Below the pieces are notes generated by a model. That model did not search any database, was not told the origin of the DNA, and worked only from the letters and a program-made list of their open reading frames with translations. From Fidelibacterota bacterium (GTDB lineage: Bacteria > Fidelibacterota > UBA8477 > JABMPR01), in contig JAJRSW010000099.1 in assembly GCA_024278595.1 (NCBI GenBank), forward strand, positions 5,573-69,572: a stretch of 64,000 nucleotides of DNA. Reading direction: 5' to 3'. A program made the position numbers and the translations under genes. Of this stretch, positions 25,481 to 55,883 are shown piece after piece. Numbering within the stretch: the stretch's first letter is position 1; every line of letters begins with the position of its first letter.

Positions 25481-25663
25481 GACGATCTACCCTGCATTAT
25501 TCATGAATTATTGCCACGAAGACACCAAGCCACGAAGATTATTAAAGTTATGAACAGGGTCATTTTAAACAGAATTATTTGCATCTGTGAGTGATAGTTT
25601 TTACTAAGCATATATTTTTTAGAACTTTGTGCCTTCGTGACTTAGTGGCTATGAATTATTCAG
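25481..25663 (-). repeat. Copy A of a ~175-bp interspersed repeat (family 1). The 'CCTGAATAATTCAT' end faces the cysE start.
   Basis: About 90% identical, in reverse complement, to 36041-36211 and 55706-55883. Shares the core caaataattctgtttaaaatgacc.tgttcataactttaataatc. Confidence 0.85.
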
Positions 25664-25849
25664 GTTAATTTAATCTAACTTTTCATTAAAACATCTTTGA
25701 ACTTGTCATTTGTAAGGCTATATAATTATCATGAGACAATTTACGTCACATAATCGCTATAATGCCTCCATGAGTGCATGTTGTATGGCCTAGGCCAATC
25801 AGCAGCGCATACATAGTTTAAATAACTCCTAAATAAAAGAATTTAATAA

Positions 25850-26683
25850 ATGAATGCCTCATTTGTAAAAATGTTAAAACATATCAATTCCAGCAACTGT
25901 TTAGATGTCCCACCCATCAGGGATACTATCGCCTTCACTGATGATCTAGTCCATCTGCTATTTCCCATCATGGAAAATCATCAGATGGAATTGTCAGAGG
26001 TTCAGCAACAGTTTGAAAGTATGCAGGTGCGACTAAACGTGCTCATGCAACCCCTGAAAATAGACAACGAGTCTCCTGTAGAAAAAATTGTTCAAGATAT
26101 TTTTGAGGAAATTCCACATATGTACCAGATATTGGTAGAGGATGCCAACATCTTTCTAGCATCTGACCCTGCTGCCTGTTGTCTGGAAGAAGTTGTCATT
26201 TGTTACCCGGGTTTCTATGCTCTCACTATTCACCGCCTGGCACATTCACTTTACACTCGGGGTATCCCCTTATTACCTCGCGTGATGAGTGAATATGCCC
26301 ATGGAAAAACAGGCATTGATATTCATCCAGGTGCTCAAATTGGTCGCCGCTGCTATATCGATCATGGTACAGGAATCGTAATTGGTGAAACAGCCGTAGT
26401 CGGAGATAATGTAAAAATCTATCAGGGTGTAACATTGGGAGCCACCTTTGTTGAAAAGCGTTTAAAACATACCAAGCGTCATCCAACCATTGAGGATAAT
26501 GTTATTCTCTATGCTGGAAGCACAATTCTCGGAAAAAGCACGGTTATCGGTCACGATACAATCATTGGCGGAAATGTCTGGCTGACAGAAAGTGTTGCAC
26601 CAAATTCTGTTGTCTATCGCCAGCAGGAATCGGTTATCCGCGATAAAGGGAATGAATCTACCCCAATCAATTGGGTCATATAA
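25850..26683 (+). CDS. cysE: Serine O-acetyltransferase
   Basis: 277 aa. Hexapeptide-repeat region GIDIHPGAQIGRRCYIDHGTGIVIGETAVVGDNVKIYQGVTLG. It lies immediately upstream of cysK. Confidence 0.9.
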   Translation: MNASFVKMLKHINSSNCLDVPPIRDTIAFTDDLVHLLFPIMENHQMELSEVQQQFESMQVRLNVLMQPLKIDNESPVEKIVQDIFEEIPHMYQILVEDANIFLASDPAACCLEEVVICYPGFYALTIHRLAHSLYTRGIPLLPRVMSEYAHGKTGIDIHPGAQIGRRCYIDHGTGIVIGETAVVGDNVKIYQGVTLGATFVEKRLKHTKRHPTIEDNVILYAGSTILGKSTVIGHDTIIGGNVWLTESVAPNSVVYRQQESVIRDKGNESTPINWVI

Positions 26684-26694
26684 GGAGCTGTTAA

Positions 26695-27606
26695 ATGAAA
26701 ATAGATAATATATTGGGAAGCATTGGTAACACCCCCCATCTAAAATTAAATCGACTTTATCCTCAAACGCATGAAGTATGGATCAAATTAGAGCGGGCTA
26801 ATCCCGGAGGAAGCATTAAGGATAGAATTGCCTTAAGCATGGTGGAAGCAGCAGAGAAGGCAGGTGACCTGAAGCCAGGGTCGGTAATTATTGAGCCCAC
26901 CAGCGGCAACACCGGAATTGGACTTGCTATGGTAGCTGCTGTAAAAAACTACCGCGTTATTTTAGTTATGCCTGAATCTATGTCAGTGGAGCGTCGCAAA
27001 CTCATGTCTGCTTATGGTGCTGAATTTGAACTCAGTCCAAAAGAGCAGGGAATGAAAGGAGCGATTGCCAGAGCAGAGGAACTTCAGGCCAATATTCCCA
27101 ATGCCTGGATTCCTGGTCAATTCGAAAACCCCGCCAACCCCCGTATTCACTATGAAACGACTGCCAAAGAAATCCTGGCCGATTTTTCCTCAGGACTGGA
27201 CTATCTCATTACCGGTGTGGGTACTGGAGGACATATTTCAGGTGTTGCCAAGGCGCTAAAGGAAAAACTTCCGTACCTTAAGGTCTTCGCAGTTGAGCCG
27301 GAATTGTCATCTGTAATTGGTGGTGGCAAACCTGGACCACATCCCCTGCAGGGTATCGGTGCTGGATTTATCCCTGACAACCTGGCAGTTGAGTTATTGG
27401 ATGGCAGTATTCAAGTCAGCAAAGAGGAAGCCTTTAATTTCGCTGTCCAGGCAGGTAAGCAGGAAGGTTTATTTTGTGGCATCTCCACTGGAGCGAGCCT
27501 AGCTGCGGTGCATCAGAAACTGGAAAATATTGAACCTGGTGCCACTATTCTTACTTTCTGCTACGACTCAGGAGACCGTTACCTGTCAGTAGAGGATCTG
27601 TACTAA
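26695..27606 (+). CDS. cysK: Cysteine synthase A (O-acetylserine sulfhydrylase)
   Basis: 303 aa. Carries the PLP-lysine motif [14 protein letters not shown] and the glycine loop GTGGHISG. Confidence 0.95.
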
Positions 27607-31911: not shown

Positions 31912-32004
31912 TTTGGGGTTCCTTTGGTAAGTTTATGAGTTCTGTGGTTGTGGGGTCGGTTTGGTGATGCTGACTTATAACCCGTTGGTTCCTGATATTC
32001 AAAA

Positions 32005-32245
32005 TTGACGCCCCCGCAGAAAGTCCCTCTCGCAGAGGCCGCAGAGCGTTGCATTGAGTCCTTCGCTGAGCTCAGGAACCGCCCTTCGACAGAGCTCAGG
32101 GACCGCCCTTCGACAGAGCTCAGGGACCGCCTGTCGAAATGACGCAGAGTGTTGTTATTTATAGGTTTAGGCGTATTTGACATAAGTAATTGTATTTATT
32201 ATACATAGAGCATATTCCGTGCTTTTCCAAATACTTTTTGCGAGG
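32005..32245 (+). repeat. Family-2 MITE-like element (copy 1) carrying three 24-bp tandem units
   Basis: Left TIR ttgacgcccccgcagaaagtccctct. Internal tandem array gctgagctcaggaaccgcccttcg / acagagctcagggaccgcccttcg / acagagctcagggaccgcctgtcg. An AT-rich arm follows, then a degenerate right TIR ctttttgcgagg. Homologous copies lie at 40179, 43514 and 45078. Confidence 0.85.
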
Positions 32246-32266
32246 TCATCACAATTACCCCCAACA

Positions 32267-34387
32267 TTAAAAACCATAGGTGGCACTTAACCGCAGGGAA
32301 CGACCCGGTTCTGGATATCCACGGATACTTTCATACTGGAGATTTCCAATATTATCACCGGCTAACACCAGGGTGAATGCTCCAAGCTCACTGAACCAGG
32401 TCCGGGCCACACTGAGGGACCAGATCTCAGAAGCCCCAAGGATAGTATCCTCGGGATAATCGTACATACTGATCCGGTGAGAGACATAATTATACTGAAG
32501 ATTGAATTCCAGCTCATCTGGCGACCAGGTAAGGCCAAAGGCAGATGTCCGGTGAGGGGCATATCTTAGAGTTTTGTTCAGCGTATGATCCCTGGTATGG
32601 ATCAGGCTTAGATGGGCAAAGGCGGACAAGTGATACCCGGGATGGTGGATCTGCCACATGGCCTTGCTGCTTTCCCTGGTGGCTGATTGAACATTACCCG
32701 GTTGCCAATATGAGTGTACGGGCATCCATTGAATTAGATTGGTGCTCTCCTTTTTCTGCCACTGAAAAATAAGCTGACCCATGACCTGCAGGTCCAGATG
32801 AAGTTGAGCAGTGGTCACCTGCGTTTCTTCCGCTTTTAGGTCAGGATTACCCCCCGGTTCCCAAAACTGGTCATTAAAGCTGGGATATCTATACAACTCA
32901 CCTCTACTCACAGCAAGCCGGTTCAATGGTCCTAACTTAAAGGGAATCTGGAGCTGCAGGTTCGTGAGCATCTGTCCGTACAGCTCAGGGCTAAAATGAT
33001 AATTTAAAGCCGGGATCAGTTTCAGTCCCCTGGAAAACTGAAATATTGGGGCAATGGAGAGCACCAGGCTCACTCGGGAATGGTTGTTAGTGGCACTGCT
33101 GGCGATCAGATCCTGATTGAGGTTGAGATCGGTCAGAAGGACCAGTTTCTGGCCCACGGTTTGTTCGTTTCTTAATCCGAGATGGAAACTTTGCAGGCGG
33201 TGATCACTCTTCAGGTTCAAATACGGATTGACATAGGTCTCTCGGGAGCGTCGTAAGTTTAATTGCAAATGAGTATTACCGCTGGGTCGGATCCATCCAA
33301 AAGTTGAGCCCAGGAGCTGGAGTTGATCCTCCCGGTGGGAGATGGTATCCGGGGACCACACCAGCCCGGCAACACCGCGAGCCTGATGGGAGCTCATGGT
33401 TGTAAACTGCCAATACAGATCAGGACGCAGCATCCCCATGAACCTGAGTGCAACAAACTTCTGGGTCAGGTCATTGTTCTTTCTAAAACTTTCCGTATCA
33501 CTCCAAACCACCGGGTAATTGCCTGCTTCACGACGTTGTCCAAACTGAAGCGAGCTTCGGAATCCAGCGATCTGTTTTCTAAGGTTTACATCGTAGGCCA
33601 GATGACCGAAACTTCCGGTACTGAACGATAGATGGTTCGGCTGATCGCCTGTTTCCAGTTTTACGATCCCATCACTGCTGCCACTGCCAGTTTGAGCAAT
33701 GTCATAGGGGCTGTAATTCATGGCTTCCAGAAAGGGCAGGGGCAATTGAGAGATATCGGCTTCACCGTTCTGAGCCGAGGTGATATCGATGCCGTTTACC
33801 AGGACCCTGGTGTGGGAGCTGGGGCCACCATCCATGCTCAAGGTGCTGATACCCGCTGGTCCACCATAGGTCTTGATGGTAATACCAGGTATTCTATTTA
33901 ACGTTTTACTATGGTCCACTGTCCCAGCACCCCTGGTTTTGGTATATTCACTAAGTGGTGACGCGGCTGCGGAGGTTCCGGATAGGCTTTTTCCAATCAC
34001 TTCAACGGATTCCAGTGACATGACCAGGGGACTGAGTCTGACCTCTCCCAGTTGGAGCAGTTCGTCCGATGATAGAATTCTTTGCACATAACCAATCCGC
34101 TGAACCATGACCGAGTCATGTGGACTTATGGGGGCCGTGTAGCTGTATTGTCCATGCTCATCTGAGAGCAGGAATATTGCTGAATGCTTGAACACCAGGG
34201 ATACATAGGGGACAGATCGACCTTCCAGGTCAAGGGTGTATCCCTGAATGATGAAATTTCTATGCGGTTTATTAGGTGTAGCATGACCAGTGGAAAATGA
34301 GAATAGCAGAATGAGCAGGGCATAAAAAAAGCCCCGTCTCAAGGTGGGGCTGGCGTCTGAATGTTTCCTGGTTCTCAGGCTGATCAT
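32267..34387 (-). CDS. TonB-dependent outer-membrane receptor with an N-terminal carboxypeptidase-regulatory-like domain
   Basis: 706 aa. It has a signal peptide and the CarbopepD_reg-like segment FIIQGYTLDLEGRSVPYVSLVF, followed by a plug and barrel. The C-terminus ...SLRLSATYGF has a terminal aromatic. Confidence 0.85.
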   Translation of the reverse strand: MISLRTRKHSDASPTLRRGFFYALLILLFSFSTGHATPNKPHRNFIIQGYTLDLEGRSVPYVSLVFKHSAIFLLSDEHGQYSYTAPISPHDSVMVQRIGYVQRILSSDELLQLGEVRLSPLVMSLESVEVIGKSLSGTSAAASPLSEYTKTRGAGTVDHSKTLNRIPGITIKTYGGPAGISTLSMDGGPSSHTRVLVNGIDITSAQNGEADISQLPLPFLEAMNYSPYDIAQTGSGSSDGIVKLETGDQPNHLSFSTGSFGHLAYDVNLRKQIAGFRSSLQFGQRREAGNYPVVWSDTESFRKNNDLTQKFVALRFMGMLRPDLYWQFTTMSSHQARGVAGLVWSPDTISHREDQLQLLGSTFGWIRPSGNTHLQLNLRRSRETYVNPYLNLKSDHRLQSFHLGLRNEQTVGQKLVLLTDLNLNQDLIASSATNNHSRVSLVLSIAPIFQFSRGLKLIPALNYHFSPELYGQMLTNLQLQIPFKLGPLNRLAVSRGELYRYPSFNDQFWEPGGNPDLKAEETQVTTAQLHLDLQVMGQLIFQWQKKESTNLIQWMPVHSYWQPGNVQSATRESSKAMWQIHHPGYHLSAFAHLSLIHTRDHTLNKTLRYAPHRTSAFGLTWSPDELEFNLQYNYVSHRISMYDYPEDTILGASEIWSLSVARTWFSELGAFTLVLAGDNIGNLQYESIRGYPEPGRSLRLSATYGF

Positions 34388-34711
34388 TCCGGTCCCTTTG
34401 CTCGCGAAGGTTCATGAAGAGTGAGTGCTTAGCATAAGTATCCTGACTTCCAGATCATCCTCCGTAGATGCCTTCCCTCATTATTGAAGTGGCAATTATC
34501 TACATCGTCCCTGGTTACAGTAGCGCGACTGTGCCCGATTTTCACGAGCTTCCTTGTGCTAAGATCTATTTACAAAAATCGCTGTTAGGTTATTCTGAAA
34601 TGAAGCGGTTGTCAATTCATTTGTTTGGGGTTTTATTGATTGCCAGTAAAAATGCAACCACGGATTACACAGATTTGTTTTTTGGTTTGGATGTTTGGGG
34701 TGTTTGGTAGA

Positions 34712-34767: not shown

Positions 34768-35946
34768 TTAATACATCACAAATTTAGCAAACCGGCCATC
34801 CAGACCACCATTCATCAGTGGCTTTTTCCATTCCGGTCGTAGGCCAATGTTTTTTAAATATTTGCGTTCCCCAAAATAGATATAGGCTTCACTACCCGCA
34901 CATTTATGTTTGAGCCAGTCACCTAAATTCTGATAGAATTCTGAAAGATCCTGACCCCGTTTTAGTCTGATCCCATAGGGTGGGTTCATGATCAGGGTGA
35001 CACCCTCCGTATTGCCAATGTCCTGGTAATCTTTCCGATGGGTATAGATCCCAGCACCACCAGGCAGGTGTCCCAGATTGCGTTTAGCGACCCGCATGGC
35101 ACTGGGATCGATATCAGAAGCCTGGATCGGTACCTGCTCCAGCGACTGAAAATTATTATCCATACCTTTCCGGATTCGTTTCCACAGCGCTGGGTCATAA
35201 TCGGGTAAGCGTTCGAAACCGAATGATTTCCTGAAATATCCAGAAGAGAGCTTGGTAAGCTGCATATAGGCTTCGGCCGCCAGGGTACCCGACCCGCACA
35301 TGGGATCGATGAGGTTCTTTTCACCGGTCCAACCGGTAAACTGGATCAGGGCTGCTGCCAAAGTCTCCTGCATGGGTGCTTCAACCGTATCCAAACGGTA
35401 GCCCCGGCGGTGCAGGGAACTCCCGCTGGTGTCAATACTGATAACAGCGCGATTATTCTCGATGTGCAGGTTGAACCAGATATGGGGGAATTTAGGATCC
35501 ACATTGGGTCGCCGCCTGAGTTTGTCCTTAAAGCGATCAACAATGGCGTCTTTCAGTTTCAACGAGGCGTACTGCGAATGGGTGATCTGACTATTACTTA
35601 CCTGGGCAAAAATAGCAAAGGTTTGATCCGGGGAGAAGATCTCTTCCCAGGGGATATCCATGGCGGTCTTGTATAAATACTTTGCGCTGTGGCAATCGAA
35701 AGAAAGGAGAGGGGCCAGAACTCTGGTGAGCAGTCGTGATCCGTAGTTGATCCTGTATAAGGCTGCTTTATCAGCAGAAAAATAGAGCCCCCGATAGCGC
35801 TGTTTGATGCTGGTAGCACCCAGATCTTTTATTTCTGTAGCTGCGAGTTCTTCAAGACCATTAGCCACCTGGGCAAAAAAGTGTCCTGTTTTAAGATATT
35901 GAAATTCCATTTTTGCCTCAAAAATTTGCCAGCCGCGGATTTTCAT
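34768..35946 (-). CDS. THUMP-domain class I SAM-dependent RNA methyltransferase (RlmL/RlmKL-like, rRNA guanine-N2 methyltransferase family)
   Basis: 392 aa. It has an N-terminal THUMP-like region, GSGTLAAEA (SAM motif I) and IMNPPYG (N6/N2 MTase motif IV). Confidence 0.8.
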   Translation of the reverse strand: MKIRGWQIFEAKMEFQYLKTGHFFAQVANGLEELAATEIKDLGATSIKQRYRGLYFSADKAALYRINYGSRLLTRVLAPLLSFDCHSAKYLYKTAMDIPWEEIFSPDQTFAIFAQVSNSQITHSQYASLKLKDAIVDRFKDKLRRRPNVDPKFPHIWFNLHIENNRAVISIDTSGSSLHRRGYRLDTVEAPMQETLAAALIQFTGWTGEKNLIDPMCGSGTLAAEAYMQLTKLSSGYFRKSFGFERLPDYDPALWKRIRKGMDNNFQSLEQVPIQASDIDPSAMRVAKRNLGHLPGGAGIYTHRKDYQDIGNTEGVTLIMNPPYGIRLKRGQDLSEFYQNLGDWLKHKCAGSEAYIYFGERKYLKNIGLRPEWKKPLMNGGLDGRFAKFVMY

Positions 35947-36040
35947 AGATAAACGCGGGATTTGTTAAATTTATAAAATTACCTATGATGATTGCATTTA
36001 AGTAACGGTGATTTGATGAAAAATACCAGAACACTTTTAG

Positions 36041-36211
36041 CCTGAATAATTCATAGCCACTCAGTCACGAAGACAAAGTTTAAAAAATATATGCTTAGCA
36101 ATAATTATCACTCACAGATGCAAATAATTCTGTTTAAAATGACCTTGTTCATAACTTTAATAATCTTCCTAGCTTAGTGTCGTGGCAATAATTCATGAAT
36201 GATGCGGTTAG
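36041..36211 (+). repeat. Copy B of the ~175-bp family-1 repeat. The CCTGAATAATTCAT end faces the RlmL-like gene start 95 bp away.
   Basis: About 90% identical to 55706-55883 and to the reverse complement of 25481-25663. Confidence 0.85.
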
Positions 36212-36348
36212 AAAGGATCATTTTATCTTGCTTTTTAATACCACTTTCGCCCATCTCGACAGGTGGTTCCTGAGTTCAGTCGAGGGTCGCAAAGCAGTGC
36301 TCCGCAAATTTAGTGCGAGCACAATATTCTCGATGATAAGTGTTTGGT

Positions 36349-40056: not shown

Positions 40057-40178
40057 ATATTCCTGGTTAACATGATGTTCTTGTTGTTAATAGCTCCAGC
40101 CTCGAATTCTTCGGACAAATACTAATTGCAGTTCTAAAGTGGTTATTAAGTCCCAAATAATTATTATTATTCACAAAC

Positions 40179-43471: not shown

Positions 43472-43513
43472 ACGCCATTCTTCTAATCAAGAGTGGTCAG
43501 GTGAATTTTGAAT

Positions 43514-43786: not shown

Positions 43787-44068
43787 AAATCGACCTTAAA
43801 ATATGCACATTGGCTGTGCTGAAAAGAATCGAATGAAGAAGTGAACATCTCGACCTGCGCAGGTTCAAAATTCGATACTCTACATTCAAAAAATGCTCCG
43901 AAGTCATAAAAAAGCACCAAAAGCTGCTTCACGCTATCGAAACCCAGGTTATATTTCGGGCGATGTCAGCTATTATCCTTCTGGAGTAAAAAAATATATC
44001 ATAGCAAGAATCGATGGGTCAAATATTAATCGATCTGTTAACAACCAATAAACAATGGTGGAACGAAA

Positions 44069-44893: not shown

Positions 44894-45077
44894 CTCCAGA
44901 ATATTAAGGGGTCCCTGCACTGCGTCTTCACCCTGCCGGTTTGGGCTTGCGCCTTCAGATTGTTTGTGATGGCAATAGGCCGACTCGATATAAGATAATC
45001 ACATTATCTTACTGCTGTTTTAGCACCCGCTCTTGAATCGTCTGGATAAGTTGAAAATATTTCCTCATTTTTCAAGC

Positions 45078-45400
45078 TTGATGCCCCCGCAGAAAGTCCC
45101 TCTCGCAGAGGCCGCAGAGCGTTGCATTGAGTCCTTCGACTGAGCTCAGGAACCGCCTGTCGAAATGGCGCAAAGTGTTGTTATTTATTGCTTTACGTGT
45201 ATTTGTCGTAAGCGGTTGTATTTAAAGGTTATAGGGCATATTCTGTGGTTTTCTAAATACTTTTTGCGAGCTCATCAAACTTGATGTCCCCGCAGAAAGT
45301 CCCTCGCCGACACGATTGTCGGGATGAGGATTTTAAGTGTGCCACACTGAGTTCATCGAAGTGTGCCACACTGAGTTCATCGAAGTGCAGAAAAATGAGG
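45078..45400 (+). repeat. Family-2 MITE-like element (copy 4, one 24-bp unit) followed by a second partial TIR and a 2x 24-bp array of a different unit
   Basis: 45078-45270: ttgatgcccccgcagaaagtccctctcgcagaggccgcagagcgttgcattgagtccttcg + one unit + AT arm + ctttttgcgag. 45281-45310: a second TIR-like ttgatgtccccgcagaaagtccctc. 45337-45384: the unit gtgtgccacactgagttcatcgaa repeated twice. Confidence 0.8.
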
Positions 45401-46856: not shown

Positions 46857-47442
46857 GATCCAGGTAGAGATCCGTCCCGTCACCGATATAGCAGCTCAGC
46901 AACTGGAGTACCAGGTGTTCTTGGAGGCTGGCTATATAGATCCCAATCAGGAACAGCTGGTACTGGAATATGCAAAATACTCAAGATCAGAATTTATCAT
47001 TACCCGGGATGGCCCCCAGCTGACCGGTGTGGTTCGACTCATATATGCAAATGATGAGCGTCCCACACGGGGTCTGCCAACTCTGGAAAATTTTAATCTA
47101 TATGATGAGTGGCAAGCTAAAATAACACGATTAGCGACCCGCAGGCTGGGTGAATTTGGGACCCTGGCTGTTCTCAAAGCATATCGAGGAGGGCGCTCGA
47201 CTTATCTGCTAAAACAGAAGCTCATCCTCCACCCTGTTTTAAAAGGGTATCGATATGGGGTTAGTCTCATAGATGAGGGACTCCTGAAGCACCTGGTGAA
47301 AGGGGGCTACCCCCTTAAACAGATCGGCGATAAGCGTTATTATATGGGCTCTGTGACCGTACCTGTGCTGGGGAGTGTTTATCACCTACCCAGAACCTTG
47401 CGAACCTGGGTGTGGAACTTTATGTTACGCTCCGGGCGTTAA
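46849..47442 (+). CDS. Hypothetical protein of 197 aa, possibly a GNAT-fold N-acyl amino-acid/autoinducer-synthase-like acyltransferase
   Basis: Overlaps the decarboxylase by 8 nt, indicating translational coupling. Its 3' end overlaps the convergent radical-SAM gene by 4 nt. Similarity is weak. Confidence 0.45.
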   Translation: MGEIQVEIRPVTDIAAQQLEYQVFLEAGYIDPNQEQLVLEYAKYSRSEFIITRDGPQLTGVVRLIYANDERPTRGLPTLENFNLYDEWQAKITRLATRRLGEFGTLAVLKAYRGGRSTYLLKQKLILHPVLKGYRYGVSLIDEGLLKHLVKGGYPLKQIGDKRYYMGSVTVPVLGSVYHLPRTLRTWVWNFMLRSGR

Positions 47443-48845
47443 TGCTTCAATCTTTTAGCCGGGTAAAAATGTTCCCCCCAAATGATCATCTTTAACATGA
47501 AGAAAGCTAGTTTAGTGGATCCCATGACAATTCTGAACATGGTGCCAAGACTAAATTTATTCACCAAATAGCCCAAATTATTATTCACATAATTGATATA
47601 CAGACTGGAAAGTAACATCTGGAATAAATAGCTGCGGACGCTCATTTTTCCGGGGCGAATGATCATTTGTCCAAATGTCCAAAAATGGTAATCCTCTTTA
47701 TCGACCAGCAATCGATCTTTATATTCATGATAGATTGGGAGGTTAGGGAAGGGGGTTAAAGGGCTAAAAGTACATATTTCAGGTTTTAGCGTTCGCATAT
47801 ATTGCCTGAACAAACGAAAATCTGCCTGATCCCAGTCCGGGTGAAAAATAAAGGAAGCCCAACAATCCACTTTTATATCCTTAAGTAATTTACTGGCTTC
47901 CAAATTATCATCCACCGATGATTTTTTATGATAGTCAGCCAACTCACTATCTTTGAATGATTCGTAACCTACCAGCACAGCGCGAAGACCATTATGGGCA
48001 AATTGGGTTACTGCCTTTGTGTTGGTTAAAAGACCATGAACACTACCGTAACAAATGAAATTTTTTGAAATGTTTTCCGCTTCCAGGAGCGTACAGAACT
48101 TTTCAAGTCGCGGACCATTATTTAGAAAATCATTATCATAAATCATAATGGTCGGTTCCTGGATATCTTTGATCTGCTGGATCACCTCATTTAGGTCTAT
48201 ATCCACTTCATGGCCGCCTTCAATGCGCCAACGTAGACAGAAATGACAGCCCTTGCTGCACCCCAGTGAGGTTTGCATAATGGCAGCCGGCTGATAGCCA
48301 AAATAATTGTAATGTTGGCGGTAGACTTGAGTGGATTGGCGGTCTGGGACAATATATTCATTATAGCCCTTATTCCCTGAAAAAGCAAATTCAAGCTGTT
48401 TGCTGCGAATACCATCAATGATCGGTACGGCAGTACCAGATGCCAGGAGGGTGAAGAGTTGGCCAATGTTTGCCCGGGTGGTATACTGGAAAATGTGATC
48501 AATTTCAGGTTTAAAAAATGCCTCTGGAGCCAGATAAGTTTGGGTTCCTCCCACAATGGTAACGATGGCAGGTCGGATTTCTTTCACTTGCCTGGCCAGT
48601 TTGAGAGCTGCTGGTACATCCACACACAGGGTTGTGAAACCAACGACTTCCGGGTGCCATTTTTTGATAATATGGGGGAGTGATCCAGGATCATCGATCA
48701 TGAGATCAAGGATTCTGATGTCATGCTCATTTTTTAAAACAGCAGCAAGTATTTCAAGCCCGATCGGTTCGCTGAACATGAATTCGCCCAGGGTGACAGC
48801 CTGTTTCATTCTGGGAGGTCGAATAAGTAATACTTTCAATGTCAA
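47439..48845 (-). CDS. B12-binding radical SAM protein (class B cobalamin-dependent rSAM, putative methyltransferase), paralog 4
   Basis: 468 aa. N-terminal B12-binding Rossmann region LKVLLIRPP...ILDL. Radical-SAM cluster motif SLGCSKGCHFC (CxxxCxxC). Confidence 0.85.
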   Translation of the reverse strand: MTLKVLLIRPPRMKQAVTLGEFMFSEPIGLEILAAVLKNEHDIRILDLMIDDPGSLPHIIKKWHPEVVGFTTLCVDVPAALKLARQVKEIRPAIVTIVGGTQTYLAPEAFFKPEIDHIFQYTTRANIGQLFTLLASGTAVPIIDGIRSKQLEFAFSGNKGYNEYIVPDRQSTQVYRQHYNYFGYQPAAIMQTSLGCSKGCHFCLRWRIEGGHEVDIDLNEVIQQIKDIQEPTIMIYDNDFLNNGPRLEKFCTLLEAENISKNFICYGSVHGLLTNTKAVTQFAHNGLRAVLVGYESFKDSELADYHKKSSVDDNLEASKLLKDIKVDCWASFIFHPDWDQADFRLFRQYMRTLKPEICTFSPLTPFPNLPIYHEYKDRLLVDKEDYHFWTFGQMIIRPGKMSVRSYLFQMLLSSLYINYVNNNLGYLVNKFSLGTMFRIVMGSTKLAFFMLKMIIWGEHFYPAKRLKH

Positions 48846-48854
48846 TTGCTCCTG

Positions 48855-50180
48855 CTAAATGATATTGGGAGTGATCCTGCGCTTGATCTGTTGTTTATAA
48901 TACAAATTGACCATCAGATAAAAGAGGTGTCGTAAGGGGTGCCTCAGAAACCCGTAATGATAAAATACCCGACTTAAAATATTGGGAATGGAGAATACGT
49001 CCTCATATAGATCCCAATAAGCTTTTGTAAGCTCGTCAGCACTCATATTCTTGGGGTCGTGAACCGCAGTTGTACTATCATAGCTAAAGTAGTCGTGATT
49101 GATAATCCGGTCATCACGTAACATCTCAGCGTGAAACTCAGTGCCGGGAATGGGGGTTAGAATATAGAACCGTGGTACCACCACCCGATTTTCCCGTACA
49201 AATGCCGCAGTTGCCTGTATGGAAGCCAAAGTATCACCGTCAGCACCAACAACCATCTCGGTTGATATATCAATCCCCGCTTGACGAATCTTTTTGAGCT
49301 GTGAATGATACCTGGAAACTTTGCCCCAGCTTTTTCCCATGGCATTCATACTATCCTGGGAAATACTTTCTAAGCCAAAACTCAGCCCGATGCAGCCGCT
49401 GTCAGCCACTGCCTGTAGCAATTTATCGTTATCAGCCAAGGTGATTGAACATTGCGAGAACCATTCCATTTTCAGTTTAGAGATCTCCTGGCATAGTTCT
49501 ATAGCATAGGTCGGGTCAGAGACCAGGTTATCATCCAGGAGCAAAAACTTCTTAAATCCCAGAGACTTTATCTGACTGATGTCCCTGATCACGCTGGCTA
49601 TACTGCGTTTATAATAGCGTCTTTGATAGAGGCAATACACGGAACAAAAGGAGCAGGCGTGGGGACATCCACGGGCGGCCTGAACCGGGAGAAAATCACC
49701 GATAGATTTATCAAGCAGGAGTTCATAACGAGGCAGGGGGGGGTCAAATATGGCTAGCTGGCGATCATAGACCTTTTTTAGACAGCCATTTTCAAAATCC
49801 TGCAAGACTTCGGGCCATAGCTCATCTGCATCACCTACGATTACAGCATCACTATAATCCTGAGCCTCTTCCTGCATGAGACTGGCCATATACCCGCCGG
49901 TGATCACAGTTTTACCCAGGCGGTGAAATTCCTTAGCTATGTCAATGGATCGATGTACGGCATGTCCCATGGTACCGATACCGATCAAATTAGCATCCGT
50001 GTCGAAAGGGAGCTCGTCAATGGTCTCCAGACAGATCTCAACCTCCCAATGGTCAGGTGTAACGGCTGCCAGCAGGGGAAAGGTAAGCCCCACAAAATAC
50101 AAGCGCTTCTTTTTAATGACCTGCCCTTCCCGGTCGTATGGAGAGGGTTGGATGAACAGGACCTTGTATCGTTTTGGCAT
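48855..50180 (-). CDS. B12-binding radical SAM protein, paralog 3
   Basis: B12-binding domain plus ARGCPHACSFC (CxxxCxxC). The ORF track starts at 50228 (457 aa), overlapping the upstream gene by 47 nt. The likely true start is MPKRYKVLFIQP at 50180 (441 aa). Confidence 0.85.
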   Translation of the reverse strand: MPKRYKVLFIQPSPYDREGQVIKKKRLYFVGLTFPLLAAVTPDHWEVEICLETIDELPFDTDANLIGIGTMGHAVHRSIDIAKEFHRLGKTVITGGYMASLMQEEAQDYSDAVIVGDADELWPEVLQDFENGCLKKVYDRQLAIFDPPLPRYELLLDKSIGDFLPVQAARGCPHACSFCSVYCLYQRRYYKRSIASVIRDISQIKSLGFKKFLLLDDNLVSDPTYAIELCQEISKLKMEWFSQCSITLADNDKLLQAVADSGCIGLSFGLESISQDSMNAMGKSWGKVSRYHSQLKKIRQAGIDISTEMVVGADGDTLASIQATAAFVRENRVVVPRFYILTPIPGTEFHAEMLRDDRIINHDYFSYDSTTAVHDPKNMSADELTKAYWDLYEDVFSIPNILSRVFYHYGFLRHPLRHLFYLMVNLYYKQQIKRRITPNII

Positions 50181-50181
50181 A

Positions 50182-51579
50182 TTAGCTGGTCTTCGAAGGC
50201 TTGGCTGAGCATACAAACCATGCAGCAAATATCTTCAGCAAGTACTGGATCGTAACTATGGTAGCTCCCCGTGACAGTTTAAGGGTCTCCCAAACACCAT
50301 ATCTGGTCAGCATGCGATAAATACTGGATCCCCGCATGGTGATCTTATAATACAGTTTGACGATATTCCAATAATAGTTATGGGGTGTAAGTTTAGAGGG
50401 CTTTAGCACCAAATGAGCCAGGTCCCATTCTTCATAATTATCACGTTCCACAATCAAACTATCAACATAAGTTTCGAATATCTCAGTTCCCGGTAGTGGG
50501 GTGAGCGGCTGTAAATTAACAAAGATCAGGTCCAATTTCCGGATCCAGGCATAGAGCTTTTGGAAATCTTCGCCAGACCAATCAGGAGAGAGGATGAATG
50601 TACCATAACAATCAATCCCGTTCTCAGCCAAAATACGCACGGCCCTTTCACTGGTTTCCAAACTGGTCTTCTTGACGTAACTATCTAATTCATCCTGATC
50701 CCAGGACTCCAGTCCAACGATTACAGCCCGCAAACCAAGTGCTTTAAAACGGGTCATTACATCGGGATTGGTGGCAATAAAATCGGCCCGACCATAGATT
50801 AAAAATTGTTTTTGAATGTTGCCCAGCTCTAGTTTGTCACAAAACTCCAGGACACGCTCTCGACTTACCAGAAAGTTGTCATCCACAATATAGATCTCTG
50901 GTTCTGAAATTCCGGCAATTTCCTGGATCACATCATCGATGGGTCTGGCAAAATACTGTTCATCGGTGATCTGAATGCAAAAGCAAAAGTTACATGAGTA
51001 GGGACAGCCATATGATGTTTTGATCAGGGCACAGGGGTTATGAAACATGTAGTAATAGCTGGAGCGGTAGCGTCTCGTCAATTCACGAGCTGGGAAATAG
51101 TCTGGAAAAGAGATCGATTTCGCTGGGACCACTTTCAGCTGCGGATTCCAGAGCCCCGGAATTTCTGTGGTACTTTGATCAGTGGAAAGGCGATCAACCA
51201 ACTGGGGGAATGATAGGTGGGCATCGGCGGCAATGATATAGTCGATATGTGGGTCTTCATAGTCAGCCGGTTGAACTTCTGCATGAACCCCTCCGACCAC
51301 GATAGCACAGTCCGGCCTTATTGACTTGATTCGCCGGGCGTATTCCTTGATCAAATTGACATGGGTGATGTATCCTGTCAAGCCCACCAGGTCAGGGGTA
51401 TGTTTTTGAATAAAGTGTGCCAGAGTCTTCCGCTCCAGGATCAGGTCGATAATAATAACCTGGTGCTGTTTCGCGACGGAGGCGGCCATATATTCCAATT
51501 CAAGTGGTTCACAAACCATGACGTATTTTAGTCCGACTGTATTGGTCGGAGGTTTCGGGCGTACCAGCAGAATTTTCAT
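50182..51579 (-). CDS. B12-binding radical SAM protein, paralog 2
   Basis: 465 aa. N-terminus MKILLVRPKPP. Cluster motif SYGCPYSCNFC. Confidence 0.85.
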   Translation of the reverse strand: MKILLVRPKPPTNTVGLKYVMVCEPLELEYMAASVAKQHQVIIIDLILERKTLAHFIQKHTPDLVGLTGYITHVNLIKEYARRIKSIRPDCAIVVGGVHAEVQPADYEDPHIDYIIAADAHLSFPQLVDRLSTDQSTTEIPGLWNPQLKVVPAKSISFPDYFPARELTRRYRSSYYYMFHNPCALIKTSYGCPYSCNFCFCIQITDEQYFARPIDDVIQEIAGISEPEIYIVDDNFLVSRERVLEFCDKLELGNIQKQFLIYGRADFIATNPDVMTRFKALGLRAVIVGLESWDQDELDSYVKKTSLETSERAVRILAENGIDCYGTFILSPDWSGEDFQKLYAWIRKLDLIFVNLQPLTPLPGTEIFETYVDSLIVERDNYEEWDLAHLVLKPSKLTPHNYYWNIVKLYYKITMRGSSIYRMLTRYGVWETLKLSRGATIVTIQYLLKIFAAWFVCSAKPSKTS

Positions 51580-52211
51580 TGGTCAGATCCTGGCACCGTG
51601 GCGATCAAAAAGAAAATGGTAGGGACGAACCAAGCGGTTTTGACTGTAGAGATGCTCACATCCGGCATGAACTGATCTACCATAGCTCTCATTTCCTGGA
51701 TTGAAGGGTAGTGCGCTGAACCAGTCGTTATTTTGATCATCAATAAGCATAGTTGGTCATATAGATTATTTGCAGATGCATTTGCGACCAGCAGTGTGCC
51801 ACCAGGTTTCAGCTGATCTACCATCCTGCGGAGCGCTGTTGCCTGATCTTCATAATAGGGCAGAGTGTGACTGGCGATGATGAGATCATAGCGTTCTGTC
51901 ACCGAAAAATCCAGCACATCACTATGAATAAAATTTATATCAGGGTTTTCCTGGCGCGCTATCTTTAACATACCCCTGGAGTAATCCACGCCAGTCAGAT
52001 GCATGGATTGATTGTGAAAAATAACTCCTAGTTCCTGGAGTAATTGACCTGTACCACAGCCCATATCCAGGATGTTCAGCTCAGCTTTGGTTTTGGGCAT
52101 GGTCTGAATATAATTAATGATCATTTCCCGGGTGGGACCAAGGGACCACTTTTGGACCCAGAGTCGATTGTAGAATTTCGCCCAATAATCCCATAATATC
52201 CTGCTACTCAA
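51576..52211 (-). CDS. Class I SAM-dependent methyltransferase
   Basis: 211 aa. Motif I ILDMGCGTGQL and motif post-I LTGVDYS. Overlaps the downstream gene by 4 nt. Confidence 0.85.
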   Translation of the reverse strand: MSSRILWDYWAKFYNRLWVQKWSLGPTREMIINYIQTMPKTKAELNILDMGCGTGQLLQELGVIFHNQSMHLTGVDYSRGMLKIARQENPDINFIHSDVLDFSVTERYDLIIASHTLPYYEDQATALRRMVDQLKPGGTLLVANASANNLYDQLCLLMIKITTGSAHYPSIQEMRAMVDQFMPDVSISTVKTAWFVPTIFFLIATVPGSDQ

Positions 52212-52215
52212 AAGG

Positions 52216-53514
52216 CTAATTCCTGCCCAGTATTGATTGTAACAAAAAATGTCTCAGCCTGCTGTTATTAAATATTAATTGGAGGTAGAGCCGATAGAAT
52301 TGTAAATAAAAATTGAGGGTCCCCAGATTGGTTGGTTTGAGTACCAGATGCAGCATATCCCAATGCTTGCGGTTTTTGGTTAACAGGGATCGGGAATAGT
52401 CATCATATATTTTTGTACCTGGGAAGGGGGTGAAGATGGAGCTGGTAAAGAGCTCCAATTCATTCTTTCGGATCCAATTGCCTAAGGTCTTGAAGGTATT
52501 ACTTGTGGACTCAAGCGGCGCAATGAACAAAGCCGTACATTGGATACCAGCTTCCCGTAAAACTGTGGCACAGCGTTCATTTTGTTGGCTCGAAACGTTC
52601 TTTTCATAAGCCTGAAGGTCAGCATCAGCAAGGGTTTCAAATCCGATGATGATATCTATGACACCAACTGATCTCAATTCAGCAATGAGTTGGGGCTGTT
52701 GCGCAACAAAATCAGCGCGCCCATAAATTATATACCGCTTTTTGAGTGCTTCACTACGGTTCAGTTTGACAAAATCTTCAACCCGCTTTTCATCGATCAA
52801 AAAATCATCATCAACTATCCAGATCAGATCATGTTGGATGGATTTTATCTCATGGATAACTGCTTCCATGGGGCGGGCTGTGTATTTCCCATCATTTAAA
52901 AGACGGCAATAACAGAAATTACAGGAAAAGGGACAGCCCGCTGCAGATTTAACCAGAGCTGCTGAGCCATAATAGTGATAATGAAATTTTCGGCGATGTT
53001 TATAAAAATGAGATCGGTCAGGGAGGACGGTATCCTGAATAGCTGGTTGGAACCTTGGATTCATCTTCCAGTTGTCCCTTTCACGGTAGGTGATGCCGGG
53101 CAGCTTAGCCAGGTTTTTAAATTGATGTTGAATGAGTCCACGAAAGGTTGAATGGCCTCCTGAAAGTACAATGATATCAATATGAGCCGTTTGAAATTCC
53201 CTGAAATTGATCTCTGCATGGACACCACCCACCAGGACAGTGATATTGGAATTGAACTTTTTTATTATTTCTGCATAGCTGAGGATCCGGTCCTGGATGG
53301 AAATGTAGCCCGTGAGGGCAACCACACTCGGTTGATAGCTCCTGAGCGTTTTAATAAGCGAGCTTCTGTCAATGACCTCGTCATGGATTTTTGTCTCGAT
53401 CTTTTCAGCTCCGGCAATCGCTGCCAGATATTCAAGATCCAGGGGCTCGGTCCGGATCGGATTAGCCAGAGAAAAAAGACTGCTATACCTGGGGCGGACC
53501 AACAGGATTCTCAT
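52216..53514 (-). CDS. B12-binding radical SAM protein, paralog 1
   Basis: 432 aa. N-terminus MRILLVRPRYS. Cluster motif AAGCPFSCNFC. Confidence 0.85.
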   Translation of the reverse strand: MRILLVRPRYSSLFSLANPIRTEPLDLEYLAAIAGAEKIETKIHDEVIDRSSLIKTLRSYQPSVVALTGYISIQDRILSYAEIIKKFNSNITVLVGGVHAEINFREFQTAHIDIIVLSGGHSTFRGLIQHQFKNLAKLPGITYRERDNWKMNPRFQPAIQDTVLPDRSHFYKHRRKFHYHYYGSAALVKSAAGCPFSCNFCYCRLLNDGKYTARPMEAVIHEIKSIQHDLIWIVDDDFLIDEKRVEDFVKLNRSEALKKRYIIYGRADFVAQQPQLIAELRSVGVIDIIIGFETLADADLQAYEKNVSSQQNERCATVLREAGIQCTALFIAPLESTSNTFKTLGNWIRKNELELFTSSIFTPFPGTKIYDDYSRSLLTKNRKHWDMLHLVLKPTNLGTLNFYLQFYRLYLQLIFNNSRLRHFLLQSILGRN

Positions 53515-54476
53515 GTATTCCCATTCCTAAAGACATTAAACGAGGTGGTGGGCATTTTGTATGATACCAGGGGCATTGCGATCTGAATCAGTTTATTTAG
53601 CATTTTGTTGGCGTGGTGAACGTGAATAAATTTCTCTTCCATCTGGCAGCCCAGTTTTAACTTTATTGCTTCACCTGTCTGCCCCAGGTCAACAATATCA
53701 CAGCCGCCTGAGATGCCCTTCCTGATGATCCAAAGTAGTATGTTAAGATAAATATCATATTGCTTGAGTCTGGTATATTTAATACCAGTGAACATAAAGA
53801 TCAAGCGCTTTGAATCCTGATATAATTGGATGAACCCCAGCAGGTCACCTGCGATCTGAAAGCGATAAATATCAGCTGGAAATTGGCGAAAAAACTCGAT
53901 TGATAATTTTTCAAGCTTATAATCCGATCTTCCATGAACATCTAAATAGAGTTGATACATGTCACCTGAGAAATCTTGATTGTCAGTCAGGTGGGTAATT
54001 TCCACACGTTGCCATTTCTCCAGGGCTTTGGTCATACGGTAGCGATAGTGACTCCTTAATCGGGTGAGATATGCATCGAATGTGTCCCAATGGATCTGCA
54101 GGATACAACTTGGGAGCGTATGGCCACTGGAAAATCCGGTGATTTGTTGCTCTGAACTATTCAGGATGATCTTGAGCCCTCTATGAGCCAAAAGATTTTC
54201 TTTTATACTTTGGGTCAGTGTGGGATGGTATCCGCAAAAAGCCAGTGAGCAGGGGATACCTACTATCCTGGTGGGGTATTTCAGGCTTAGACCAAGATAG
54301 GTGAACAAGTTCAGGTGTATTTTATATGAGACCGCTACACATGGTTCTTGGGGATCATTGGAGAAAAAGTAACGTTGGTTACAAAAATTGGTTTCCTCAA
54401 GTATCTCCAGAGAGTCCTTTTTTAAAAAGGGGTTAGCTGAATTCACTGGAAAAGAAAAATCTGGAATTCCCCTCAC
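53511..54476 (-). CDS. Hypothetical protein of 321 aa, possibly a FemAB/GNAT-fold acyltransferase
   Basis: Overlaps the downstream rSAM gene by 4 nt, placing it in the same operon. No secure motif. Confidence 0.45.
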   Translation of the reverse strand: MRGIPDFSFPVNSANPFLKKDSLEILEETNFCNQRYFFSNDPQEPCVAVSYKIHLNLFTYLGLSLKYPTRIVGIPCSLAFCGYHPTLTQSIKENLLAHRGLKIILNSSEQQITGFSSGHTLPSCILQIHWDTFDAYLTRLRSHYRYRMTKALEKWQRVEITHLTDNQDFSGDMYQLYLDVHGRSDYKLEKLSIEFFRQFPADIYRFQIAGDLLGFIQLYQDSKRLIFMFTGIKYTRLKQYDIYLNILLWIIRKGISGGCDIVDLGQTGEAIKLKLGCQMEEKFIHVHHANKMLNKLIQIAMPLVSYKMPTTSFNVFRNGNT

Positions 54477-54507
54477 ATTTAATACTGATCGTAGTGTGAT
54501 GGCTAGC

Positions 54508-55701
54508 TCAGATATTAACTGAATAAACTTTATAAGATTTTAACGGCTTGATCTTATCCTGTGACCACTTGTTGATCATTCCCTTTGAACTGATGTTCGT
54601 ATCCACAACCCACCCGGTTTCGCAGGTTTCAAACTTGTTTTTAGTCTCTTTGTAGCAGGCTGCCATCAGATTGATCCCGATACCTGATCGTTGGTATTCA
54701 GGTAATACTGCAACCTGTGCCCCCCGGAAAGATCGTACTGAAGCGCTGGAGAACTTGTTCTTTAAATAGGCTATAAGTCCAATTCTCCCTCCGGCTGGGA
54801 TCAATTCATTGAAATCTGGATACCAGAGTAAATAACCGACTGGTTTTCCAGCTATCTCAGCTATTAATAGATTTTCCGGTCTTAAAATGGGTTTAAACAT
54901 CTCTAACATTTCATAGTCTTCGGCGACTTGGCGGTGAAAATAAAAGGGATGTTTGGCAAAAGCTGCATTGCTCAGTGAATTATAGATTACAGACTCTGAG
55001 GCCAAATTGGAGAGGTCAATATAGCGAATATTAAGTCCTGCAGATTTTTCCGGAAGTTTTAGGGAGCTAAACTCTTTTGCAAATTGCCCCATTCCTTTTT
55101 GATAGGTGTCCAGCTCGGAGAAATTGGTGGCATGAGCAGAAAGGAGGGTGTCATAATAGCCTGGATTCCAGGCATTTCCGAAGCTCATGGGTAGGTCAAA
55201 GCCGCGAGAAAGAATGCCAAGGCCGTAATTGGGGTGGCCGTTAATGCCAAAGACAATTTGCTTAGCTCCCCGTTCTTTTCCGGCTCGTGAAGCTTCTTCA
55301 ATGATTATAGGGACGGTACCAGGGTTGTTCAGGGATTCAAAAAATGCCACCATGATCATATCAGGGGCTTGATCTGACCAGATAAGGGTTGCCACAGCCT
55401 GGGGAATCTCATCAATAATAAGAAGGGGTTGAATGTATTTATCTTTCGAAAAGGCAGATTTACCAGTTAGGATACCTCTCATGGTGGGGACCATGGAAGC
55501 CCGATAATATGGATTACCCTGATAGAGGTCTTTTATAAATTTGAAATACTGATTCAGATTACTGGTGGAACATTGAACTATTTGCACAGTATCGTTTCCC
55601 TTTAAATATTTTAGACCGGTTGAAGAAACAATCCAAGGGAAAAAACTAACTCTGCAGTAATATTTTAGAATTTTCCACAGCGTGGCAATTAATCGAGACA
55701 A
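54508..55701 (-). CDS. GNAT-fold acyltransferase-like protein (397 aa, two-domain)
   Basis: C-terminal VLPEYQRSGIGINLMAAC resembles the GNAT acyl-CoA-binding motif Q/RxxGxG/A. The ORF-track start at 55701 is TTG, 5 nt from the repeat. The true start may lie downstream. Confidence 0.5.
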   Translation of the reverse strand: MSRLIATLWKILKYYCRVSFFPWIVSSTGLKYLKGNDTVQIVQCSTSNLNQYFKFIKDLYQGNPYYRASMVPTMRGILTGKSAFSKDKYIQPLLIIDEIPQAVATLIWSDQAPDMIMVAFFESLNNPGTVPIIIEEASRAGKERGAKQIVFGINGHPNYGLGILSRGFDLPMSFGNAWNPGYYDTLLSAHATNFSELDTYQKGMGQFAKEFSSLKLPEKSAGLNIRYIDLSNLASESVIYNSLSNAAFAKHPFYFHRQVAEDYEMLEMFKPILRPENLLIAEIAGKPVGYLLWYPDFNELIPAGGRIGLIAYLKNKFSSASVRSFRGAQVAVLPEYQRSGIGINLMAACYKETKNKFETCETGWVVDTNISSKGMINKWSQDKIKPLKSYKVYSVNI

Positions 55702-55705
55702 CTAA

Positions 55706-55883
55706 CCTGAATAATTCATAGCCACTAAGTCACGAAGCCACCAAGTTTTAAAAAATATATGCTTATCAAAAATTATCACTCACAGATGCAAATAATTCTG
55801 TTTAAAATGACCTTGTTCATAACTTTAATAATCTTCGTGGCTTAGTGTCCTCGTGGTAATAATTCATGAATAATGCAGGTTAG
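55706..55883 (+). repeat. Copy C of the ~175-bp family-1 repeat. The CCTGAATAATTCAT end abuts the start of the rSAM/GNAT operon.
   Basis: cctgaataattcatagccactaagtcacgaag...caaataattctgtttaaaatgaccttgttcataactttaataatcttcgtggcttagtg...gtaataattcatgaataatgcagg. Internal inverted repeats cacgaag/cttcgtg and ATTCATGAAT. Confidence 0.85.

Follow-up and report, generated by a model that had tools for sequence, protein, structure and literature searches.

The four short repeats described here, copies A to D of a 64,000-nucleotide stretch of DNA (the window), are probably copies of a MITE, a protein-less cut-and-paste DNA transposon moved in trans, with an IS1380-family DDE transposase as its most likely mobilizer. 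The elements are small and without coding capacity, carry terminal inverted repeats, generate target duplications of a fixed 4 bp, occur as dispersed copies that relatives lack at the orthologous positions, and form part of a multicopy family whose subfamilies have unrelated interiors. These features support the MITE reading that a first-pass annotation of the window had favored.

Copies, termini, and target duplications

Copies A, B, and C are 91 to 94% identical (90.8% for A/B, 94.3% for A/C, and 91.4% for B/C; nhmmer E values of 1e-58 to 1e-63), which bears out the identity of about 90% first reported for them, and their interiors are well conserved among the three. All window copies are 167 to 174 bp in length with no open reading frame inside (Table 1). 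Copy B is bounded by a perfect 4-bp TTAG duplication (36037-36040 and 36208-36211) and copy D by a perfect TTAA duplication (38417-38420 and 38594-38597). The tetranucleotides flanking copy A (TTAA at 25665-25668 and GTAG at 25487-25490, in element orientation) are not identical to each other, nor are those flanking copy C.

Copy A lies between divergent genes for a peptidase M1 (start at 25417, 73 nt away) and a cysE-like product (start at 25850, 185 nt away). Copy C is similarly placed between the GNAT-like first gene of a radical SAM operon (start at 55587, 118 nt) and a 2H-phosphodiesterase-like gene (start at 56215, 335 nt). Copy B separates the typA stop (36349) from the rlmL start (35910), and copy D separates the typA start (38181) from a gene encoding 196 amino acids (38702).

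Table 1. Positions of the element copies and of adjacent upstream segments in the window
Feature	Positions	Strand	Description
Copy A	25491-25664	minus	174 bp; AGCCAC-type (L) end at 25664, GCAGG (R) end at 25491
Copy B	36041-36207	plus	167 bp; 3-nt deletion in each subterminal region
Copy C	55706-55879	plus	174 bp; flanks CTAA (55702-55705) and TTAG (55880-55883)
Copy D	38421-38593		173 bp; ends CCTGAATTATTCAC and (reverse complement) CCTCATTAATTCATACCACTTAA
typA-proximal upstream region	38182-38330	minus	Conserved in all relatives; outside copy D
rlmL-proximal segment	35911-36040	minus	130 nt between copy B and the rlmL start

Copy D, introduced in the first-pass annotation as a degenerate copy at 38420-38545, stands as a fourth copy with recognizable ends, and its limits are corrected in Table 1. 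Each of its ends has 2 mismatches, a level at which 1.1 chance matches are expected in the whole window. It has in common with copies A, B, and C only its ends, its size, and the flanking duplication; the similarity of its interior to theirs is not significant (z = 1.6 and 0.5), so that its orientation is not assignable. The left end bears the R-type signature CCTGnATTATTCA and the right end resembles the AGCCAC type, and judged from these ends, copy D looks, if anything, reversed relative to its first description. It is an old member of the family or one of a different subfamily.

A dispersed family and its orthologous sites

A metagenome scan recovered 36 further loci, spread across lineages, that share a 20-nt end with the window copies. 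Members of this family have in common a CCTGAATAATTCAT-AGCCAC end and one to four subterminal 8-bp repeats (CACNAAG) together with an inverted counterpart. The terminal repeat spans 14 to 16 nt, reading CCTGAATAATTCATAG on one side and CCTGnATTATTCATAAATTTT, in reverse complement, on the other, and the subterminal units are arranged in tandem as GCCAC-N-AAG or N-CAC-N-AAG. These terminal inverted repeats (CCTGAATAATTCAT... and ...ATGAATAATGCAGG) are kept in all subfamilies and are extended by the inverted 8-bp units, such that the imperfect terminal repeats and the cacgaag/cttcgtg motifs noticed at the outset are real and form part of an extended terminal repeat of about 40 bp. The ends are strictly conserved, whereas the interiors are unrelated between subfamilies and total lengths lie between 60 and 405 bp, below the limit of about 600 bp for MITEs. 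In one case (L041), a family member is nested within another. An interior motif, TCAGTTT(G), that seemed conserved was rejected, being missing from several subfamilies.

Many of the metagenome matches stop at contig edges. Scanning a genome collection with an interior 20-mer returned only three chance-like single matches in unrelated MAGs; a scan of viral contigs with the 18-nt end gave no match, and a PLSDB plasmid search with copy C returned nothing relevant.

Perfect 4-bp target duplications flank 17 of 25 full-length copies, copies B and D included, and are mostly of the form YTAR (TTAA, TTAG, CTAA, or CTAG). Because perfect duplications also occur at TCAA, TAAG, TTAT, and TGTA, target preference by itself cannot explain them. 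A TA duplication of the IS630/mariner type was considered and rejected, since the copies at these four non-YTAR sites show 4 bp.

Comparison with related genomes reveals sites that lack the element. Copies B and D are both missing from the closest relative (L048, with a TypA identity of 94%) and from two others (L004 and L006); copy B is also missing from L007 and L008, and upstream of typA, where copy D would stand, L007 has no more than the decayed remains of an element related to it. In relatives without copy B, the typA-rlmL spacers measure 19 to 30 bp and, in the closest relative, 137 bp. The 130 nt proximal to rlmL are partly conserved with this 137-bp spacer, indicating that the segment is older than the insertion of copy B. 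At the site of copy A, the intergenic sequence of L004 has diverged too far to be aligned; at that of copy C, the nearest relative that could be retrieved shows 58% identity, and its genes are ordered differently.

Could the repeats instead be functional cis-regulatory or small-RNA elements, such as operators, attenuators, or mRNA-stabilizing hairpins, rather than selfish DNA? The plus strand of copy C has a more stable fold than shuffled sequences do (z = -3.8), and the interiors of copies A, B, and C are well conserved. However, the fold amounts to pairing of the terminal repeats, the RNA or DNA hairpin expected for a MITE, and the strand of copy B that could be cotranscribed with typA and rlmL has a z of +0.2. 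A regulatory role is further opposed by the lack of any Rfam match at gathering or E-value thresholds, by the functionally unrelated neighboring genes, by subfamilies that differ wholly in their interiors yet keep their ends and target duplications, and by the absence of copies at orthologous sites in close relatives. Such a role is thus highly improbable.

Under the MITE reading, a transposase encoded elsewhere would move the element in trans, with the terminal repeat and the 8-bp subterminal units being the parts needed for movement; the latter would probably serve as additional transposase-binding sites. Insertion takes place at a 4-bp site, usually YTAR, which is thereby duplicated. Copies A, B, and C (6 to 9% divergence) probably derive from one fairly recent burst, with copy D as an older or separate member, and most copies are probably neutral for the neighboring genes. 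The first-pass annotation had also raised an insertion preference for promoter regions. The placement of the copies is better explained by the density of the YTAR motif, 2.7 times higher between genes than within them, along with selection: copies would persist between genes because the target is commoner there and because insertions within genes would presumably be lost.

Orientation toward genes and outward promoters

The first-pass annotation held that the same end of the element always faces the start of a gene transcribed away from it, at a distance of 5 to 240 bp, and took this as a sign of a promoter-carrying element of fixed orientation. Copies A, C, and D each sit between divergently transcribed genes, with a gene start off either end, so only copy B can test the claim (n = 1). 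In the wider family, no bias is seen: among 10 informative same-direction contexts, based on crude ORF calls in the metagenome loci, the AGCCAC end faces the gene start in 4 and the other end in 6, and two further copies lie between convergent genes. The distances to gene starts actually range from 118 to 239 nt. The 5-bp value, assigned at copy C, was rejected as an artifact of an over-extended TTG ORF; a database protein 100% identical to the product of the adjacent gene has 359 amino acids, placing the gene at 54508-55587 and the gap to copy C at 118 nt. Similarly, an rlmL start at 35910 (380 amino acids, as in relatives) sets the gap to copy B at 130 nt.

A MITE with an outward promoter at the CCTGAATAATTCAT end could drive the adjacent gene, as ISEcp1, other IS1380-family elements, or the Correia elements of Neisseria can. 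Strong outward promoters are documented in the IS1380-family elements ISEcp1 and ISPme1 (PMC9330008), whose family the ends described here resemble, and each of the four window copies has at least one end no more than 240 nt from a gene start. Moreover, copy B parts rlmL from typA, so rlmL requires either read-through or a new promoter.

Against this promoter reading, copy B is the only informative copy in the window, the orientation of copy D is uncertain, the wider family is divided 4 to 6 between ends with two copies between convergent genes, and the interiors are not conserved between subfamilies. Copies A, B, and C have a single sigma-70-like match in common, which is weak (9/12) and is directed away from the CCTGAATAATTCAT end, toward the other end. 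What appears to be the -7 box in use upstream of genes in the window, TAnnTTTG, lies 15 to 47 nt upstream of five window genes and occurs in no copy of the element. The sequences that could serve as promoters for the neighboring genes all lie outside the elements: the conserved region upstream of typA, which has a TAnnTTTG box at about 38228 and is likely typA's own promoter and leader; the promoter-like sites of cysE (10/12); and the ancestral 130-nt segment of rlmL. With three of the four copies uninformative, a 4:6 split, and no convincing outward promoter motif, the view that adjacent genes invariably receive a promoter from one end of the element is not supported, and a MITE acting through an outward promoter seems quite improbable. 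Nothing therefore changes in how this organism is understood to regulate its genes.

The IS1380 link and comparison with known systems

The first 16 nt of the family are identical (16/16) to the IRL of an IS1380-family element on an Enterococcus faecium plasmid, whose ends read CCTGAATAATTCATAGTTTTT and CCTGAATAATTCATACTTTTT and whose gene scores 372 bits against the NCBIfam IS1380 transposase model NF033539 (cutoff, 180) and 480 bits against PF13701. Likewise, CCTGAATAATTCATAG is identical over 14 to 15 nt to the IRL/IRR of ISEfa26, which are reported as CCTGAATAATTCATA... (PMC13417996). This sharing of terminal sequence with IS1380-family insertion sequences makes an IS1380-family DDE transposase the most likely mobilizer, an identity that we infer from the ends. 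The search for a cognate full-length transposase that the first-pass annotation had called for turned up none in the window or in 48 loci (tblastn with the E. faecium transposase; Pfam). Loci with one-ended matches (L010, L018, L021, L028, L030, and L043) contain only ordinary neighbors, such as a sulfatase, and no transposase.

The target site might point instead to an IS5-family transposase as the mobilizer. Targeting of YTAR, with duplication of 4 bp, is the hallmark of IS5, and duplications in the present family are strictly 4 bp, as opposed to 5 bp in the IS1380-family elements examined (IS1247 and the E. faecium element, the latter with TATAA). The range for the IS1380 family is 4 to 5 bp (ISfinder). 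The terminal 16 nt identical to an IS1380-family inverted repeat argue against IS5, as does the CC with which the elements start, since IS1380-family ends begin with CC and IS5 ends with GG or GA. In addition, IS1380 is a prokaryotic relative of piggyBac, serving as an outgroup for piggyBac transposases, and piggyBac itself targets TTAA with a 4-bp duplication (PMC10813416). That the mobilizer belongs to the IS5 family and not to the IS1380 family is accordingly quite improbable.

The elements are an ordinary new MITE family of the FCB group (Fibrobacterota-Chlorobiota-Bacteroidota and relatives), inserted at intergenic sites of a marine Marinimicrobia genome. For Marinimicrobia (SAR406) and their uncultured FCB relatives, mobile elements are almost undescribed, and the family points to a transposase of the IS1380 type that would prefer piggyBac-like targets. 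Its defined end sequence and target rule can be used to annotate assembly-breaking repeats in metagenomes, and strains can be told apart by the copies that they have or lack. A more far-reaching interpretation, which we regard as rather unlikely, is that of an undescribed IS1380/piggyBac-like branch active across FCB phyla (Marinimicrobia and Calditrichota/KSB1-like), distinguished by strict 4-bp YTAR duplications and a multisite end of tandem 8-bp units, with some copies, such as copy B between typA and rlmL, perhaps co-opted to provide or adjust transcription of the gene downstream.

Among known systems, the IS1380 family (IS1678/ISEfa26-like elements, ISEcp1, and ISPme1) shares with these MITEs CC termini, short target duplications, and the same terminal sequence. 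The present elements differ in having no transposase gene, in size (60 to 405 bp versus about 1.7 kb), in their 4-bp duplications (versus 5 bp in the IS1380 elements examined), and in their FCB-group hosts (versus Bacillota or Proteobacteria); moreover, their tandem 8-bp GCCACNAAG subterminal units were not observed in the element from E. faecium. The YTAR target and the 4-bp duplication recur in IS5 (IS5 group of the IS5 family), but its terminal sequences are unrelated.

Like other bacterial MITEs (MITEPye1, related to IS1182; the Correia elements of Neisseria; and RUP of Streptococcus pneumoniae), the elements combine small size and many copies with terminal inverted repeats and target duplications; they are mostly intergenic and hairpin capable, and their ends resemble those of an insertion sequence family (PMC11578231). 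They are set apart by their end sequence, their 4-bp YTAR target, and a presumed IS1380-type partner. For Correia elements, promoters and IHF sites are documented, with no equivalent seen in the present family. The eukaryotic piggyBac elements and their MITEs also have ends starting with CC and 4-bp duplications at TTAA-like sites, and their transposases are related to those of IS1380, used as their outgroup (PMC10813416). Unlike piggyBac, the family described here is prokaryotic and less strict in its target, using YTAR and also other tetranucleotides; any kinship between the two would run solely through the IS1380 link.

Repeat copies and family architecture

The three clear copies of the repeat (A, B and C) are 90.8% (A/B), 94.3% (A/C) and 91.4% (B/C) identical in global alignments, and repeat finding pairs the arms of A and C as complementary at 94% over 186 nt. 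A profile built from these copies recovers all three (E = 1e-58 to 1e-63) and finds no further match in the whole window, missing copy D. The limits of D follow from two inverted end-like sites at the right spacing, CCTGAATTATTCAC at 38421 and CCTCATTAATTCAT (reverse complement) at 38593, each with 2 mismatches; 1.1 such chance matches are expected in the whole window. Its left end bears the GCAGG-type signature and its right end looks like the AGCCAC type, its interior resembles neither A nor C significantly, whichever way it is aligned (z = 1.6 and 0.5), and its orientation cannot be assigned.

In a metagenome scan, the terminal 20-mer CCTGAATAATTCATAGCCAC occurs at 36 loci. Across extracted copies, one end has the sequence CCTGAATAATTCAT-AGCCAC-N-AAG and then 1 to 4 tandem 8-bp units (N-CAC-N-AAG), the opposite end comprises inverted units and ...GGC(A/G)AAAATTTATGAATAA(G/T)GCAGG, and this difference is consistent throughout the family. 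Interiors are unrelated between subfamilies, and sizes range from 60 bp (L013 282-341, little beyond two ends, flanked by CTAA/CTAA) to 405 bp (L037); within a nested pair (L041 10641-11006), one member (10761-10934) has inserted into the other. In 17 full-length copies of 25, the same tetranucleotide stands as a direct repeat on either side of CCTG...CAGG, mostly of the YTAR type (CTAG, TTAG, CTAA, TTAA), and the identical flanks outside this pattern (TCAA, TAAG, TTAT, TGTA) can only be explained as duplications. Within the window, B is flanked by TTAG/TTAG and D by TTAA/TTAA, and the flanks of A and C are imperfect.

Because they have terminal inverted repeats, a target duplication of fixed length, no coding capacity and many copies, the elements are MITEs (small transposons without a transposase gene); they form a genuine, previously unannotated family with IS1380-type ends, ordinary in kind. 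The first-pass annotation was right to call the element a MITE, and its dispersed repeat with three copies of about 90% identity is borne out by interval reading, repeat finding and alignment; its degenerate fourth copy stands, with the limits moved from 38420-38545.

Features of the window, with the gap from element end to gene start
Feature	Position	Strand	Gap
Peptidase M1 gene	22418-25417	-	
Copy A	25491-25664	-	185 nt (cysE-like)
cysE-like	25850-26683	+	
cysK-like	26695-27606	+	
TonB-dependent receptor-like gene	32267-34387		
Cobalamin riboswitch	34416-34602	-	
RlmL-like methyltransferase gene (rlmL)	34768-35910	-	
typA-rlmL spacer	35911-36348		
Copy B	36041-36207	+	130 nt (rlmL)
typA	36349-38181	-	
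Copy D	38421-38593		239 nt (typA)
Hairpin segment	38598-38700		
196-aa protein gene	38702-39292	+	
Radical SAM operon	47439-55587	-	
Methyltransferase-like gene of operon	51576-52211		
GNAT-like first gene of operon	54508-55587	-	
Copy C	55706-55879	+	118 nt (GNAT-like)
2H-phosphodiesterase-like gene	56215-56988	+	
Second repeat family	31998-32256, 40171-40334, 43511-43787, 45071-45282	+, +, -, +	
Second repeat family, fragment	about 36241-36320		
TAnnTTTG boxes	8094, 17681, 30372, 38228, 60983	-, +, -, -, -	

Orientation, promoter motifs and neighboring genes

The first-pass annotation favored a promoter-carrying element or an insertion preference for promoter regions, with the same end always facing a gene start 5-240 bp away. 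Copies A, C and D each separate a divergent gene pair, so that both ends face a gene start in either orientation, and only B can test the claim in the window. Among 10 informative same-direction contexts in the wider family, where ORF calls are crude, the gene start is faced by the AGCCAC end in 4 and by the other end in 6, and two more copies lie between convergent genes; a fixed orientation is therefore not supported. The corrected gaps are 118-239 nt, the "5 bp" at C being an artefact of an over-extended TTG ORF (a database protein with 100% identity is 359 aa long). The intergenic location of the copies is explained more simply by the density of YTAR targets, 20.2 per kb in intergenic versus 7.6 per kb in coding DNA, and selection against insertions into genes would also contribute. 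Divergent regions make up 30% of intergenic length, and their share of 3 of the 4 copies falls short of significance (p about 0.08).

Nor is the promoter interpretation supported. The sole sigma-70-like match common to A, B and C, CTCACA-18-TAAAAT, is weak (9/12) and points to the end opposite CCTGAATAATTCAT. Five window genes, typA among them, have the Bacteroidetes-type -7 box TAnnTTTG at 15-47 nt upstream, against about 0.8 expected by chance, so the organism probably uses it, which suggests FCB-type promoters in a Marinimicrobia genome; the box is absent from all element copies. The 10/12 sigma-70-like sites of cysE lie outside A, and typA and rlmL keep upstream DNA conserved in relatives outside D and B. 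Copy C, taken as RNA, has a better fold than shuffled sequence (z = -3.8) because its terminal repeats pair; the strand of B that would be transcribed together with typA and rlmL folds no better than shuffled (z = +0.2), and Rfam has no match for the elements. A regulon operator, already disfavored in the first-pass annotation on the grounds that the genes are functionally unrelated, is excluded by the unrelated neighboring genes, the unrelated interiors and the presence/absence pattern.

The cysE-like/cysK-like pair (25850-27606) is flanked by the peptidase M1 and inositol-phosphatase genes, which are both on the other strand, with copy A at one edge of the rearrangement; in the related locus L004 these two genes are adjacent (418-bp spacer). 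The operon next to copy C, conserved in L046 and L047, contains four radical SAM genes, three of which encode a B12-binding domain in the window, as well as a gene for a methyltransferase-like protein of 211 aa (family assigned only through its homologue in L046/L047) and a GNAT-like gene, for which the nearest named homologues occur in cable bacteria (Candidatus Electrothrix). The gene at 53511-54476 has no family match in its window copy, and its counterpart in relatives matches Acetyltransf_6. The TonB-dependent receptor-like gene is preceded by the cobalamin riboswitch (70.6 bits). The 196-aa gene has immediately upstream a ~95-nt segment that contains a long hairpin (GGTTCTCTGCT...AGCAAGAACC); this segment recurs in L007 (about 7517-7620) and is absent from L048 and L004.

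Insertion history and hosts

The best matches to the TypA of the window, 88-94% identical, are named Candidatus Marinimicrobia, which places the host in Marinimicrobia (SAR406). The distance from the typA stop to the rlmL start is 19-30 bp in L004 (11834-11852), L007 and L008 (TypA identity 91-92%), 137 bp in L048, the closest retrievable relative (3688-3824; TypA 94%), and 438 bp in the window, where copy B and a fragment of the second repeat family account for the extra DNA. L048 shares the 130 nt adjoining rlmL, which are therefore older than B; the spacer has grown stepwise, and typA and rlmL, ancestrally a co-transcription unit, were probably separated in this way. The DNA ahead of typA is conserved across all relatives only in its proximal ~150 nt. 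Copy D lies beyond that stretch and is missing from L048, L004 and L006, and in L007 this intergenic region holds the decayed remains of a related element. At the level of sequence comparison, these relatives show that the elements are mobile.

The second repeat family (~190-280 bp), unrelated to the first, carries a conserved ...CCCGCAGAAAGTCCCTCTCGCAGAGGCCGCAGAG... head together with 1-5 tandem units of 24 bp (TCGACAGAGCTCAGGGACCGCCCT); its fragment in the typA-rlmL spacer is directly beside B.

Contigs with MITE family members have 34-52% G+C. The sample with most matches, Ga0247727, carries a near-identical 174-bp subfamily, and its host resembles Calditrichota/KSB1 (GlgA is 67-68% identical to named matches, none of them Marinimicrobia). 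With Marinimicrobia and Calditrichota/KSB1-like hosts, the family spans lineages of the FCB group (Fibrobacterota-Chlorobiota-Bacteroidota and relatives). The interior of the window's own subfamily (A/B/C) has no match elsewhere in the collections scanned.

Probable relation to IS1380

The CC terminus and 4-bp duplication pointed to the IS1380 family. The MITE's terminal 14-mer, sought in full texts, occurs in ISEfa26, an IS1380-family element with IRL CCTGAATAATTCATAATTTTTCAAAA and IRR CCTGAATAATTCATACCTTTTATAAA (PMC13417996), and a PLSDB search with its repeat turned up an element on an E. faecium plasmid with ends CCTGAATAATTCATAGTTTTT... and ...AAAAAGTATGAATTATTCAGG, whose ORF scores 372 bits on the NCBIfam IS1380 transposase (cut-off 180) and 480 bits on PF13701. 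The first 16 nt of the MITE are identical to the left repeat of this element, and the other MITE end resembles its repeat further in (TTCATAAATTTT). We infer, rather than observe, an IS1380-type partner transposase, since neither the window nor any locus examined contains one. A literature search of incomplete coverage found no description of an IS1380-related MITE, and we claim no priority.

The duplications present a real discrepancy, being 4 bp in the MITE family versus 5 bp (TATAA) in the E. faecium element. IS1380 transposases are prokaryotic relatives of piggyBac, which targets TTAA and makes a 4-bp duplication (PMC10813416), and this kinship fits the YTAR/TTAA preference of the MITE family.
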